Source: Flavobacteriales bacterium UBA3364 (lineage in GTDB: Bacteria; Bacteroidota; Bacteroidia; Flavobacteriales_F; PHOS-HE28). From it: a stretch of DNA of 64,000 nucleotides. Under the pieces are notes generated by a model. That model had not been told where the DNA came from, did not search any database, and saw nothing but the letters and a program-made list of their open reading frames with translations. The translations under genes and the position numbers were made by a program. Each line of letters starts with the position of its first letter. Position 1 is the first letter of the stretch. The DNA lies in the NCBI GenBank assembly GCA_002360495.1, contig DEQO01000196.1, positions 5,638 to 69,637 of the forward strand. The letters are read 5' to 3'. Positions 18,649 through 23,430 of the stretch are shown piece after piece.

Positions 18649-21192
18649 TCATGTCTCTTTCGCCACCACCGTATCATACAACCCATAATGCCTCAGCCCC
18701 TCGTGGCTCTCGATGCCCGTGTATCGCAACGACGCATCCTCGTACCTGCGGAACGCGAACACCGCCTGGTTCATCTGCTCGGTGTTGAACACCTTCAGCT
18801 TCACCAGCAGGTGGAAGTCCTTCACGGTTAAGCCGGTCACGGTCTGGAAGAGGTCCGGCTCCAGCTTGGTGATCACGTCCTGAAGGGTGTTCTCGCGGAA
18901 GTCCGTGAGGTACATGAAGGCCGGGATGCGCGTGGCGAACTTGATCAGCTTCTCCTGTACCAGCTTGCGCTTGCTCTTGTACTCTTTCTCTTCGTCCGTG
19001 AGCTCCTTCTTCTCCTTCGCGGTAAGCCCACCCTCCTTCGCCTTCTTCTTCAGGTCCTTGATCTTCTCGCTCTTGTTGATTATCGTCTCCAGGATGTTAT
19101 CGCCCAAGGCGCGCCAGCCTTCGATCTTCTCAATGGCCTTCATGGCCTCCGGGTCGTCCAGTAGCCGTTGCAGCGTAAGATTGTCCACGTTCACCAGCAG
19201 GGCGCTTTCCCACTTGCGGGCGAGCAGCGTGGCCGAGGTGCCGGCCATGGCGATGTCCAGGATGCCGCCCGCATCGATCTGCGTCATGTTCGCGCCATCG
19301 TAGGCGAGCACGGGCAGGAAGGACACCAGCTCCTTCACGGCGTTCTCCGGGTTCGGTTCGTTCGGCGATAGTCCGATACCGTATTCGGAAAGCTGGCGTA
19401 GCGCACGCGTGGGCGCGAAGTCGAACACGAAGCAGATGGGCTTCAGGATCTCCTCTGCGTTCGGGTCGTCGCCGTTGGGGTTCTTGATGGACCACGGCGA
19501 TTGCACGCGGAAGGCCGCTTGGAAATAGGTCTCCGGCGACTTGAGGTTCCGCAGCATCAGGATGGCCGACCATTGCGCCACCGTTACGCCCGTGGTGAGC
19601 TTGCCGCAGCTCAGCGTGATCGTCTTCGTGTCGAAGCCACTGCCGATGGCCTTGCGCACGGGTGGCAGGGCATCCAAGCCGATACCAGCGGACGTTCCCG
19701 CTGCGACTACCACGGTATAATCCTTCCAATAGGTATTCTGTCGTTCGGCGAGCAGGTTGGCCATGGCGTGGCAGGCCGCCACGTTGGGCAGGAACCAAAA
19801 CGAGTGTTGCAGGTAGGGCAGCAACCGCACATCCGAATACGGGAACGGCGGACGTGTGCCGGTCTTCAGGTGCTCCACCGCGCGGGGCGCATAATCACCG
19901 CGGATGATGTCCAGCCACTTCTGCACATCGCTCTTGTGCTTGAACTCGGCTTTCACTCCCGAGCCGCTCGCCTCGAAGAAGGCGTTGAGGTCGAACTCAT
20001 CGAACTCACCGGCGCTCGCGATGGCCAGCAGTTCATCGGGCATCTGGTAGGTGAGCAGGCGCATCTGCGGCAGCGCACCGTAGGGGTTGCGCTTATCGGG
20101 GGGGTGCTGCGCGGCGAAGGCTTCCTTGGCGCGCTGCTCGTCGGTATAGGTCCAGTTGAAGATCTGCTCTTCGATGAACTCGCCCGTGGCCAGGGCCTTG
20201 AAGGGCGTGCCGCTGAGGTAGAGGTAGGCCTTGGTGGTGATGGGCAGGAACTCGCTCTCCTTCTCCAAAGGTTGTTGCAGGTCGGCCACCTTCTCCTTCA
20301 GGCGCTTCTCGTCCTCCAGCCGGGCCTCTTCGCGCGCAAGGGCTTCTTCCTCGCTCTCGAAAAGCTCCTTGGCCGATTCGCGCCAGGCCCCGAAGTGGTA
20401 CTCATCGAAGACCACGAGGTCCCACTTCACCTCATGCACCCATTCGTTCTTAGGCTTGATGTTGCCCAATGCATCGCGGCCCAGCAGGTCCTGGAAGGAG
20501 CCGAAGTAGACCACGGGCTTGCGCTTGTCGATCTGCGTCGGATCGCTGCCGCTGTTCTTGCTGAGGTATTGCCAGCCGCTGAAGTCCACGTGGTTCTCCA
20601 GGTCGGATTGCCAGGCATCCTCCACGGCGGGCTTGAAGGTGACCACCAGCACGCGCTTGGCTCCCATCTTCTTCGCCAACTGGTAAGTAGTGAAGGTTTT
20701 GCCGAAGCGCATCTTGGCGTTCCACAGAAAGCGCGGCACGGCGTGCATGTCCTCCTTCCAGATGGAATGGAAGTAGGCGTGCGTCTTGTTCACGGCATCC
20801 GCCTGCTCGCGGCGCATGGGGAAGTCCTCGTGGTGGCTGCCGGTGAACTTCGCGCCAGTGCGGATCTCGGCCAACACGGCCTTCACATCCTTCACCGTGC
20901 AGCGCATCCACTCCAGCTCCACACGATCGAAGCCTTTGCGCGCCAGCGCGGCACGCACCTCGTGGTCCGTAATGATGCCGCCATCATCGCGCTCGGCTGC
21001 TTCATCCAGCTCGATGGTGAAGTTCTTGATCGCGGCGGTCTTCAATTGCTCCGCCACGCGTTGCTTCACGTTGCGCGTGGTCTGGCCCACTTTCAGTTGG
21101 CCCTTATGCGCCTCATCCGCGATGGAGTAGGCGTAGATGCGCGGCCGCGCTTCCGGCTTGGGCGCGAGGATGTCATCGACGGTCTTATTCAT
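18649..21192 (-). CDS. T5orf172 (GIY-YIG superfamily)-SF2 helicase fusion, restriction (Res)-like subunit
   Basis: N-terminus: RIYAYSI...LKVGQTTRNVKQRVAEQ...DHEVRAAL...LEWMRCTVKDV (T5orf172-like). Helicase: AKMRFGKTFTTYQL (Walker A), LVVFDEYHFGA (DEYH box), QAAFRVQSP (motif VI-like). Overlaps the MTase stop by 8 nt. Confidence 0.75.
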   Translation of the reverse strand: MNKTVDDILAPKPEARPRIYAYSIADEAHKGQLKVGQTTRNVKQRVAEQLKTAAIKNFTIELDEAAERDDGGIITDHEVRAALARKGFDRVELEWMRCTVKDVKAVLAEIRTGAKFTGSHHEDFPMRREQADAVNKTHAYFHSIWKEDMHAVPRFLWNAKMRFGKTFTTYQLAKKMGAKRVLVVTFKPAVEDAWQSDLENHVDFSGWQYLSKNSGSDPTQIDKRKPVVYFGSFQDLLGRDALGNIKPKNEWVHEVKWDLVVFDEYHFGAWRESAKELFESEEEALAREEARLEDEKRLKEKVADLQQPLEKESEFLPITTKAYLYLSGTPFKALATGEFIEEQIFNWTYTDEQRAKEAFAAQHPPDKRNPYGALPQMRLLTYQMPDELLAIASAGEFDEFDLNAFFEASGSGVKAEFKHKSDVQKWLDIIRGDYAPRAVEHLKTGTRPPFPYSDVRLLPYLQHSFWFLPNVAACHAMANLLAERQNTYWKDYTVVVAAGTSAGIGLDALPPVRKAIGSGFDTKTITLSCGKLTTGVTVAQWSAILMLRNLKSPETYFQAAFRVQSPWSIKNPNGDDPNAEEILKPICFVFDFAPTRALRQLSEYGIGLSPNEPNPENAVKELVSFLPVLAYDGANMTQIDAGGILDIAMAGTSATLLARKWESALLVNVDNLTLQRLLDDPEAMKAIEKIEGWRALGDNILETIINKSEKIKDLKKKAKEGGLTAKEKKELTDEEKEYKSKRKLVQEKLIKFATRIPAFMYLTDFRENTLQDVITKLEPDLFQTVTGLTVKDFHLLVKLKVFNTEQMNQAVFAFRRYEDASLRYTGIESHEGLRHYGLYDTVVAKET

Positions 21193-22780: not shown

Positions 22781-23430
22781 GGCAGCTCGAGCGTTGGGGC
22801 CACATCCTGTGCGGCCAAATCACCTACCGTCATGGGCGGGTAGCTTTTCACCGGGGAGAAGATGTCGTGCCGCTCCGCCGCGGCGAAGAGCTCGCCTTCG
22901 GTCTTCCACGAAGAGGCCTGCGTGAGCACATCCAAACGGAAATCACGCCGCTGAAACTTGCCCTTGCCCAGGTAGCCCCATTCGGCGAAGGTCATCGGCT
23001 GGCCCTCGTGCGTGAGCATGGTGAGAGCGTCGCCATGTACCAGGTTCTGGGCCAGCACATGCGAGGCGGCGTGGTAGAGGTCGTCGGTCTCTTCCAGCTG
23101 CAAGTACTCCGCAAAGACCTCCAGCATGTTGGCCTTGCACTCGGCGATGTTGTCCGTGAGCAGTTCGATGCCGTAGGTACACATGAGCCCGAGCAGGGCA
23201 TAGTGCCGCTTCTCGAACTCGTTCTTCCCGTACTTCAGTTCCACCGCGGCGAGCTTGCGTTGCAGGATTCGCACGAGGAAGTTGCCGCTGCCGCAGGCCG
23301 GCTCCAGAAAGCGCGAGTCGATGCGCTCGGTCTCGTCCTTCACGAGGTCGAGCATGGCCTCCACCATCCAATCGGGGGTGAAGACCTCGCCGTGGTCGGC
23401 TACGCGTTGTTTGGATTTGATGAGGGACAT
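22777..23430 (-). CDS. methyltransferase-like protein with SAM-binding half only (no NPPY motif)
   Basis: GEVFTPDWMVEAMLDL (motif X), FLEPACGSGNFLV (motif I), YGIELLTDNIAECKANM, LVHGDAL. I found no [ND]PP[YFW]. Its stop overlaps the MTase ATG (ATGA at 22777-22780). Confidence 0.65.
   Translation of the reverse strand: MSLIKSKQRVADHGEVFTPDWMVEAMLDLVKDETERIDSRFLEPACGSGNFLVRILQRKLAAVELKYGKNEFEKRHYALLGLMCTYGIELLTDNIAECKANMLEVFAEYLQLEETDDLYHAASHVLAQNLVHGDALTMLTHEGQPMTFAEWGYLGKGKFQRRDFRLDVLTQASSWKTEGELFAAAERHDIFSPVKSYPPMTVGDLAAQDVAPTLELP

Follow-up and report, generated by a model that had tools for sequence, protein, structure and literature searches.

A three-gene array of half-methylase, Eco57I-type methyltransferase and T5orf172-helicase as a candidate ATP-dependent restriction-modification system with an exchangeable specificity block

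This report concerns an array of three overlapping genes on the minus strand of a 64,000-nucleotide (nt) stretch of contig DEQO01000196.1 from Flavobacteriales bacterium UBA3364, referred to at its full length as the window. The array, here called the triad, encodes a 217-amino-acid (aa) protein resembling half of a DNA methyltransferase (MTase), a 531-aa MTase of the Eco57I family, and an 847-aa protein in which a T5orf172 nuclease domain precedes a superfamily 2 (SF2) helicase. With confidence a little above even, the three genes are read as one self-contained, horizontally mobile, ATP-dependent restriction-modification (R-M) system, in which a swappable specificity block would be combined with a constant accessory subunit predicted to bind S-adenosylmethionine (SAM). 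This reading is preferred because a constant nuclease-motor accompanies a shuffled recognition block, because the genes are tightly linked and occasionally fused, because all three are under purifying selection, and because they lie in defence islands. An R-M-like function had been proposed in an earlier sequence-only reading of the window, and the comparisons assembled here lend that proposal support. The literature searched yielded no description or test of the triad, only the work on DnmA-YeeBC and general reviews, and existing annotations of its proteins are generic.

Open reading frame (ORF) calling on the window recovered the three ORFs at the positions proposed in the sequence-only reading: the small-protein ("half-methylase") gene at 22777-23430, predicted to encode a SAM-binding protein without a catalytic motif; the gene of the γ-class Eco57I-family N6-adenine MTase, with its C-terminal target-recognition region, at 21185-22780; and the gene of the nuclease-helicase, a restriction (R)-like subunit, at 18649-21192. 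All three, and all features placed within them below, are on the minus strand, and the coordinates of motifs were derived by hand from the ORF translations. The coupling claimed for the first two genes is seen as a 4-nt ATGA overlap, and the MTase and nuclease-helicase genes overlap by 8 nt.

A comparison of 42 complete arrays shows that all three genes are under strong purifying selection. The ratio of nonsynonymous to synonymous divergence (dN/dS) is lowest in the helicase (0.07), reaches a median of about 0.11 in the small protein and stands at 0.17 in the MTase. The synonymous difference (pS) is about 0.7, at which synonymous sites are near saturation; for the small protein, the median nonsynonymous difference (pN) is 0.15 against a pS of 0.70. 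The helicase is the most uniform of the three proteins (mean pairwise identity 0.83), followed by the small protein (0.74) and the MTase (0.61), and within the MTase the figure is 0.76 over residues 1-196, 0.69 over 197-295 and 0.45 over 296-531. The same division appears in the co-variation of the proteins: MTase residues 1-196 vary together with the small protein (r = 0.45) and with each of the three helicase parts (r = 0.36-0.49), such that small protein, MTase N-half and helicase mutually co-vary at r = 0.35-0.49. Residues 197-295 and 296-531 track each other closely (r = 0.91), and their correlation with the N-half, the helicase and the small protein is negligible (r = -0.02 to 0.11). Individual sequences place the boundary more sharply. 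Two relatives, P0399 and P0419, are 99% identical to the window MTase over residues 1-155 and only 45-76% identical thereafter, which sets an identity breakpoint at about residue 155; at its own locus (L093), P0419 is flanked by a small protein with 94% and a helicase with 97% identity to those of the window, its C-half being only 47-70% identical.

From these co-variation blocks and the breakpoint in P0399 and P0419, the exchangeable unit is taken to be the NPPY subdomain together with the target-recognition domain (TRD), that is, residues ~156-531. This block (156-531; 21188-22315) runs from just before catalytic motif IV to the end of the chain and includes the TRD (residues ~296-531; 21188-21895), and the remaining N-half (residues 1-155; 22316-22780) forms a "constant" module with motif X, a non-canonical motif I and a motif II lacking its acidic residue. 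The breakpoint falls within the predicted methylase fold, near a boundary at about residue 196 that divides half-size relatives, among which phrog_21201 and phrog_4376 correspond to the N-half, and phrog_3689 and the PADLOC profile PDLC03375 (348 aa) to the C-half.

Linkage of the three genes was assessed in a sample of 80 loci, 50 of which were informative, with 4.4 kb or more of downstream sequence past the small gene. The intact small protein-MTase-helicase array was found in 42 of these 50 and all three genes in 48; the six loci that contain every gene and failed the single-match test comprise three with frameshifts or interruptions (L028, L047, L065), two in which the helicase match is split in two (L084, L085) and one that ends at a contig edge (L029), and large deletions account for the last two. 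Since the same gene order recurs across dozens of unrelated genomes, the association is more than chance, and the flanks of the triad are unrelated from locus to locus, with integrases at one, housekeeping genes at another and McrB at a third. The triad is no rarity: it is a very large and deeply conserved family, in which each protein has more than 8000 clusters at 90% identity. In a pattern scan that took one genome per species, at least 544 genomes encode the small protein, and they are distributed over Proteobacteria, Nitrospirota, Chloroflexota, Acidobacteriota, Cyanobacteria, Planctomycetota, Verrucomicrobiota, Bacteroidota, Spirochaetota, Firmicutes, Actinobacteria and Gemmatimonadota, and homologues of the 847-aa protein with about 85% identity occur in Cyanobacteria, Chloroflexi, Desulfuromonas, Nitrospira, Planctomycetota, Flavobacteriales and Acidobacteria. 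No copy of the triad was found in the complete Escherichia coli genomes searched.

Mobile and fused copies extend this picture. Plasmids of Sphingopyxis, Rhizobium, Deinococcus, Corynebacterium and Variovorax also carry the triad, and the Enterococcus faecium plasmid p211b-a encodes nuclease, helicase and methylase as a single 1445-aa polypeptide. This fusion aligns with the whole of the window's nuclease domain (including the invariant G36, T38, R40, R45, E94 and W95), with the helicase and with the Eco57I MTase, although Pfam T5orf172 itself does not score on it, and the small-protein orthologue (248 aa, 41% identical) is retained beside it as a separate upstream gene that overlaps the fused one. 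A fused helicase-MTase form must also underlie the PADLOC profile PDLC03626 (REase_MTase_IIG, 1359 positions), because this single profile matches both window proteins, the helicase over residues 155-777 (profile 180-800) and the MTase over 197-522 (profile 1008-1359). A further copy (L092) was observed at 10793-18396 of NatCom_35866 (PV036449.1), a temperate-looking phage from human faeces. Here the small protein has 260 aa, the MTase 506 aa and the T5orf172-helicase, 56% identical to that of the window, 974 aa; genes for a 760-aa AAA_13 ATPase and for an excisionase precede the small gene, and the triad may be defence cargo of this phage. As a separate observation, 0.3-1.9 kb separates the small and MTase genes at 16 of the 80 loci. 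Six of these 16 (L012, L029, L034, L051, L073 and L075) share a conserved 383-aa ORF at that position, followed in at least three (L034, L073 and L075) by an ORF of 154-164 aa; at a guess from the sequences alone, the former may be an ImmA/IrrE-type peptidase and the latter a DUF4411/PIN-like protein. The junction looks like an insertion hot spot at which the triad itself is left intact.

The 531-aa protein matches the Pfam family Eco57I (E = 1.4e-33), without a match to MmeI_Mtase. Its motifs occur in the order X (NDEVFTPP, residues 25-32), I (FLDPCTKSGVFL, 63-74) and IV (FDVIIGNPPYQ, 201-211; 22148-22180), followed by the C-terminal region, an order that assigns it to the γ class, and in alignment A3 motif IV is invariant at F201, D202, V203, I204, G206, N207, P208, P209, Y210 and Q211. 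In Foldseek searches, its AlphaFold2 model is matched over the full length by CamA (E = 4e-14), BrxX/PglX and M.TaqI, and by LlaGI (5ffj) at E = 6e-7, so the predicted structure is that of a complete γ-class MTase fold with a C-terminal TRD. The earlier assignment to the γ class, with GNPPY and a C-terminal specificity region, thus agrees with both the motif order and the CamA- and TaqI-like predicted fold. The cofactor motifs of the N-half are unusual: motif I reads FLDPCTKSG, with Lys69 where the first glycine normally sits, the motif II position reads GIGIT and contains neither Asp nor Glu, and the end of strand β3 reads LIHT, so the Asp of motif III is missing. Four deep lineages retain the motif I lysine (within KTG in the phage copy, within KSG in the other three), and together with the lost motif II acid this lysine recurs in the Variovorax, phage and Enterococcus homologues, each of which is encoded beside a small protein with canonical motifs. 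M.TaqI, too, deviates in motif I, and the deviation at motifs I and II is for that reason no proof of inactivity. Between motifs II and III, at residues 121-163, there is also a family-specific insertion with a Cys/His cluster (YCSKH…H…H…KCxYCG) that is shared by the homologues P0391, P0394, P0462 and P0502 and is lengthened in some by an extra 20-aa segment; a zinc finger formed by C123, H131, C158 and C161 was considered and downgraded, C123 being Tyr in Variovorax and the insertion being absent from the Enterococcus enzyme.

The small protein contains the SAM-binding motifs in canonical form. Motif X (HGEVFTP, residues 13-19; 23374-23394), invariant at E15, V16 and T18 in alignment A2, aligns with motif X of HsdM, BseCI and TaqI; motif I (FLEPACGSGNFL, 41-52; 23275-23310) is a canonical G-x-G SAM-binding loop with E43, A45, C46, G47, G49 and F51 invariant in the same alignment; motif II (YGIEL, 86-90; 23161-23175) has an invariant Y86 and G87 and the acidic residue E89, a position held by E or D throughout the family; and motif III (NLVHGDAL, 129-136; 23023-23046) has an invariant N129, a nearly invariant G133 and D or N at position 134. 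These four motifs and the conserved cofactor-contacting residues E15, T18, E43, G47, G49 and F51 are the features of a class I SAM-binding fold, and the protein most likely binds SAM, to judge from its sequence. Pfam matches are weak and limited to the N-terminal part (MmeI_Mtase, 26.9 bits against a gathering score of 27, and N6_Mtase). The AlphaFold2 model is confident (mean predicted local distance difference test score (pLDDT) 87.9). Its Foldseek matches, among them CamA, BsaXI, LlaGI, LlaBIII, DrdV and BrxX, are partial (about 100-140 aligned columns) and cover only the SAM-binding half of γ-class N6-adenine MTases, for which reason the protein is regarded as a half-methylase rather than a complete enzyme.

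The point at which the small protein departs from its relatives is motif IV. The chain stops about 50 residues past the equivalent of β4, without motif IV or a TRD, and at the position where relatives carry GNPPY it reads LTQASSW. The sequence-only reading had reported motifs X, I, II and III and no NPPY; this description stands, an alignment-based check for [DNS]PP[YFW] having returned nothing in the small protein apart from the sole PP, in SYPPM (196-200), which lies in the C-terminal tail and does not line up with motif IV. Ahead of the LTQASSW position, the AlphaFold2 model predicts a family-specific β-hairpin (TFAEWGYLG / FQRRDFRLDVL; strands 147-155 and 158-165) that, with the vestigial motif IV position, spans 22906-22992, and in which E150 and W151 are invariant and R161, D163 and F164 nearly so (A2). 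The comparison is anchored by P0379, a 500-aa single-chain relative whose genomic context is limited by a contig end: its first ~160 residues are 53% identical to the small protein, and beyond them it continues directly into KFDVIVGNPPY, followed by a C-half alignable with the window MTase up to its end. By eye, the segment FRLDVLTQASSW of the small protein resembles the KFDVIVGNPPY of P0379, although a MAFFT alignment puts the two segments in different columns. A role of FAEW as a substitute for motif IV was rejected: P0379 keeps FSEW and still has its own FDVIVGNPPY downstream, so FAEW belongs to an insertion hairpin. On this reading, the small protein would be a truncated, catalytically dead paralogue of the SAM-binding N-half of an Eco57I-type methylase, with the fold kept as far as β4 and motif IV vestigial.

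The possibility that the 217-aa ORF is instead a functionless, decaying fragment of a longer methylase is effectively refuted. It does lack motif IV and a TRD, and P0379 is a full-length relative with an N-half of the same type; against this, among the more than 8000 homologue clusters at 90% identity, the best 120 listed are nearly all 208-230 aa long and 76-95% identical, and a search of 50%-identity representatives returned 320 clusters at E < 1e-30, of which the best 150 listed are nearly all below 310 aa. A dN/dS of about 0.11, invariant SAM-binding residues, a confidently predicted fold, and retention both beside the fused Firmicutes enzyme and in the phage copy all speak for function.

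The 847-aa protein begins with a T5orf172 nuclease domain of the GIY-YIG superfamily (residues 20-110; 20863-21135), which Pfam detects as PF10544 at 32.2 bits against a gathering score of 20. Among relatives that share 38-49% identity, its core is invariant at G36, T38, R40, R45, E48, Q49, E94 and W95, and Y20 is conserved in at least 90% (alignment A4); the Arg and Glu of the R45/E94 type correspond to the catalytic residues of GIY-YIG enzymes, and the earlier placement of a T5orf172/GIY-YIG domain at the N-terminus of the helicase is confirmed together with its catalytic core residues. In Odn, a T5orf172 nuclease of phage ICP1, replacement of the equivalent Glu by Ala abolishes cleavage (PMC8263062). 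The SF2 helicase/translocase core follows at residues ~124-640 (19273-20823), where Pfam ResIII matches residues 124-280 (30.8 bits against a gathering score of 22.5), the family phrog_16 ('DNA helicase') matches residues 464-612, and motifs I (GKT, 164-166; 20695-20703), II (DEYH, 263-266; 20395-20406), III (SGTP, 327-330) and VI (QAAFRVQ, family form QAAFRxQ, 558-564; 19501-19521) are invariant in A4. The C-terminal region of about 200 residues (641-847; 18652-19272), which includes a Lys/Glu-rich stretch, is the most conserved part of the protein (mean pairwise identity 0.87); it matches no Pfam family and no nuclease, and it may be a coupling or interaction domain. Given the invariant NPPY, SF2 motifs and T5orf172 Arg and Glu, MTase, motor and nuclease are all likely to be catalytically competent. 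At locus L002 (12329-14785), the helicase orthologue is called from an internal Met (MGQTTR…), with the loss of the first T5orf172 β-strand, and the motif II region reads VVFEEYH, not VVFDEYH, so this copy may be losing nuclease and ATPase function.

In the mechanism we propose, the C-terminal block of the MTase (~156-531) would recognise the DNA target and mark host DNA, serving as an exchangeable specificity cassette. The 847-aa subunit would be the restriction component: its SF2 motor would translocate on DNA once an unmodified site has been recognised, and its N-terminal T5orf172/GIY-YIG nuclease would cut. The 217-aa subunit would belong to the constant core of the complex, alongside the MTase N-half and the nuclease-helicase, and may act there either as a degenerate second methylase protomer or as an adaptor that senses the cofactor and links methylation status or SAM to the motor-nuclease.

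Among published systems, the triad comes closest to DnmA(YeeA)-YeeB-YeeC of Bacillus subtilis (Morgan et al., 2009, PMC2731913; Fernandez et al., 2023, PMC9973331), whose three genes encode a methylase of the MmeI family, a helicase and a protein with a T5orf172 domain. Since 2009 that cluster has been proposed to be a helicase-dependent R-M system with one-strand modification. Both are three-gene clusters found in defence islands that combine a γ-class N6-adenine MTase lacking a nuclease domain of its own with an SF2 helicase and a T5orf172/GIY-YIG domain. They differ in that DnmA is a full-length MmeI-family MTase, whereas the triad MTase matches Eco57I only, and in that the helicase (YeeB) and a C-terminal T5orf172 domain (YeeC) are encoded by separate genes, whereas the triad unites both in one 847-aa protein with T5orf172 at the N-terminus; YeeB and YeeC were compared by description only. 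No half-methylase subunit has been described for the Bacillus cluster, in contrast to the predicted catalytically dead half-MTase of the triad. The nuclease domain itself has a counterpart in Odn, which belongs to the same Pfam family, keeps the catalytic Arg and Glu and has demonstrated, Glu-dependent nuclease activity (PMC8263062); Odn is a stand-alone, sequence-directed enzyme with a RepA-like DNA-binding domain, whereas the T5orf172 domain of the triad is joined to an SF2 motor.

In overall layout, the triad is best read as a Type ISP enzyme split into subunits, or as a pair resembling Mod and Res of Type III, by analogy of domain order. Type ISP enzymes such as LlaGI and LlaBIII are ordered as nuclease, SF2 ATPase, coupler, γ-class N6-adenine MTase and TRD, an order that the Enterococcus fusion reproduces exactly; the triad shares the γ-class N6-adenine MTase followed by a TRD, and the MTase folds are similar (Foldseek 5ffj, 4xqk). 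LlaBIII and LlaGI are cited as having more than 95% sequence homology over their first three domains, and they reportedly have different specificities; this combination of constant domains and differing specificity resembles the C-half swapping of the triad. Type ISP enzymes are, however, single polypeptides with an N-terminal nuclease of the Mrr-type PD-(D/E)xK class, as opposed to three polypeptides with a GIY-YIG-superfamily nuclease and an extra half-MTase; even the ISP-like Enterococcus fusion still has its separate small subunit, and the triad helicase has no detectable sequence similarity to LlaGI or LlaBIII. With Type III systems (EcoP15I Mod/Res) the triad shares separate methylase and helicase-nuclease subunits, specificity on the methylase, and a Pfam ResIII motor, and the division of labour within the Mod dimer offers a possible analogy for the MTase and the small protein. 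Yet Mod is a β-class enzyme (motif IV before I) with a central TRD, whereas the triad MTase is γ-class with a C-terminal TRD, and in Res the SF2 helicase is N-terminal and the PD-(D/E)xK nuclease C-terminal, whereas the triad has an N-terminal GIY-YIG-type domain and a third subunit. The γ-class Eco57I/MmeI-type MTase with TRD also recalls the Type IIG/IIL enzymes (Eco57I, MmeI, BpuSI), CamA, BrxX/PglX and M.TaqI, and PADLOC files the fused relative as REase_MTase_IIG. Type IIG/IIL enzymes fuse a PD-(D/E)xK nuclease to the MTase and have no ATPase motor, whereas here an MTase without a nuclease is accompanied by a dedicated SF2 motor in which GKT and DEYH are intact; of the structural neighbours, CamA is an orphan MTase, and PglX works within the bacteriophage exclusion (BREX) system. 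With its GIY-YIG nuclease, γ-class MTase and third subunit, the triad fits the definition of no established R-M type; among PADLOC models it matches only R-M models derived from REBASE and no named defence system, and none of its proteins has a specific NCBIfam model.

Several points weigh against reading the triad as an R-M system. Neither sequence nor profile searches gave a solved homologue of the helicase, and no named family anchors it. SAM binding by the MTase is uncertain because of the lysine in the glycine loop and the missing acids at motifs II and III, and the AlphaFold2 model of this protein is only moderate (mean pLDDT 67.5) and poor over residues 106-184. The co-variation was computed from non-independent sequence pairs, without phylogenetic independence, and is descriptive. 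Variation in the TRD is moderate (about 45% identity) and weaker than in Type I S subunits. Lastly, dnmA-yeeB-yeeC, the nearest published analogue, gave no phage protection in B. subtilis and was interpreted as a relic, with DnmA acting as an orphan MTase and yeeB and yeeC having no defence phenotype (PMC9973331). The behaviour of that cluster is also the starting point for an account without restriction, in which the MTase would be orphan or regulatory and the nuclease-helicase would serve abortive infection, anti-plasmid activity, repair or mobile-element maintenance regardless of methylation. The presence of the triad on phages and plasmids fits such a role, as does a conservation that is extreme for a defence gene, at 83% identity with saturated synonymous sites. 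We nevertheless consider the account decidedly improbable: the three genes are tightly linked and sometimes form one polypeptide, the triad occurs in defence islands, and the swap of a specificity block next to a constant nuclease-motor is a hallmark of self/non-self discrimination by methylation. Homologues of DnmA-YeeB in Vibrio crassostreae, moreover, affect phage sensitivity (cited in PMC9973331).

A different division of labour within the triad is unlikely, if still a serious minority view. Here the small protein would be the true SAM-binding half, serving the NPPY/TRD C-half of the MTase in trans, the MTase N-half would be a degenerate scaffold, and methylation, possibly with restriction licensing, would depend strictly on the small subunit. 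The idea draws on the canonical motifs I, II and III of the small protein, set against an MTase N-half that in four deep lineages has the glycine-loop lysine and no motif II acid; on P0379, the sole single-chain relative found, which joins a small-type N-half directly to the C-half; on the free-standing half-size families noted above; and on the recombination breakpoint at about residue 155, which implies that the two halves are separable units. The model of the 531-aa protein argues otherwise, being a complete MTase fold that can be superposed on CamA and TaqI and in which the protein's own N-half takes the SAM-binding position, and the strong conservation of this N-half (0.76 mean identity, with the KSG/KTG lysine retained) suggests function over decay. 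We also know of no precedent for a half-Rossmann domain that complements in trans while the cis half is present. A fuller form of the proposal, to which we likewise give only a small share of our confidence, would make the small protein the obligatory trans SAM module of a naturally split methylase-restriction machine and the cofactor half of the MTase a structural adaptor for the nuclease-helicase, such that the small protein would supply or sense SAM and tie both methylation and restriction licensing to the cellular SAM pool. If this were true, the design would also sense the SAM-degrading anti-restriction enzymes of phages and, with the exchange of NPPY and TRD inside the Rossmann fold, would represent a new way to build and diversify R-M enzymes.

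The surroundings of the triad in the window have the character of a defence island, as annotated with PADLOC and Pfam. The triad lies in a region of lower guanine-plus-cytosine content (about 5.5-33 kb of the window; 53-62% against 64-70% in the flanks), with the chromosomal DnaG at 34169-36241. Downstream of it are found, in order, a DUF4238 protein, an adjoining GmrSD Type IV enzyme and a double helicase. The DUF4238 protein (301 aa, 17698-18603), whose gene starts 45 nt past the stop codon of the 847-aa helicase, and the GmrSD-family Type IV restriction enzyme (621 aa, 15836-17701) are both encoded on the minus strand with a 4-nt overlap and look like a coupled two-gene module; the latter is matched in PADLOC as Orf5/mREase_IV, and the former has no PADLOC match. 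Because they are absent beside the triad at the other loci compared, they are regarded as modules separate from it. The ORF at 10757-15625 (minus strand) encodes a 1622-aa protein with a RecQ/DEAD-type SF2 helicase (~288-610) and a UvrD-type superfamily 1 (SF1) helicase (~1060-1485), whose PADLOC matches include DpdF (E = 4.5e-101), PsyrT and GajB-type models; it does not accompany the triad elsewhere and may be a stand-alone defence helicase. Upstream, at 23753-29347 (minus strand), two tandem paralogues of about 920-940 aa with TPR_12/TPR_10 repeats share an N-terminal segment (…GRIVFQNSG…GVLVK…DANATRST…GAFTL…), and beyond them lie genes for a 543-aa protein without a Pfam match (29332-30963) and a WYL-domain protein (30873-31772). 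The 320-nt intergenic region upstream of the small gene contains a perfect inverted repeat, GGAACC-N11-GGTTCC (23512-23534), about 80 nt from the start of the gene, a possible operator. The triad, this intergenic region included, showed no convincing sigma-70 promoter or terminator. Among public sequencing runs matching the window, the best was an activated-sludge metagenome (98% of sampled 31-mers), and the matching runs listed were nearly all metagenomic DNA, with one of unknown kind and no RNA run.

The triad represents a very large family, spread over more than a dozen phyla as well as plasmids and a phage, that has so far carried generic annotations only. If it is an active R-M system, it would add to the known repertoire an ATP-dependent architecture with a GIY-YIG nuclease, and its small constant core with a swappable cassette could be useful for the prediction of methylation motifs in metagenomes and for the engineering of specificity. 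The recombination breakpoint inside the predicted methylase fold would be an unusual route to a change in specificity. Finally, a half-methylase that is apparently dead and yet perfect in its SAM motifs, held at a dN/dS of about 0.1, offers a clean and testable case in which cofactor binding may have been split from catalysis in a DNA-modifying machine.

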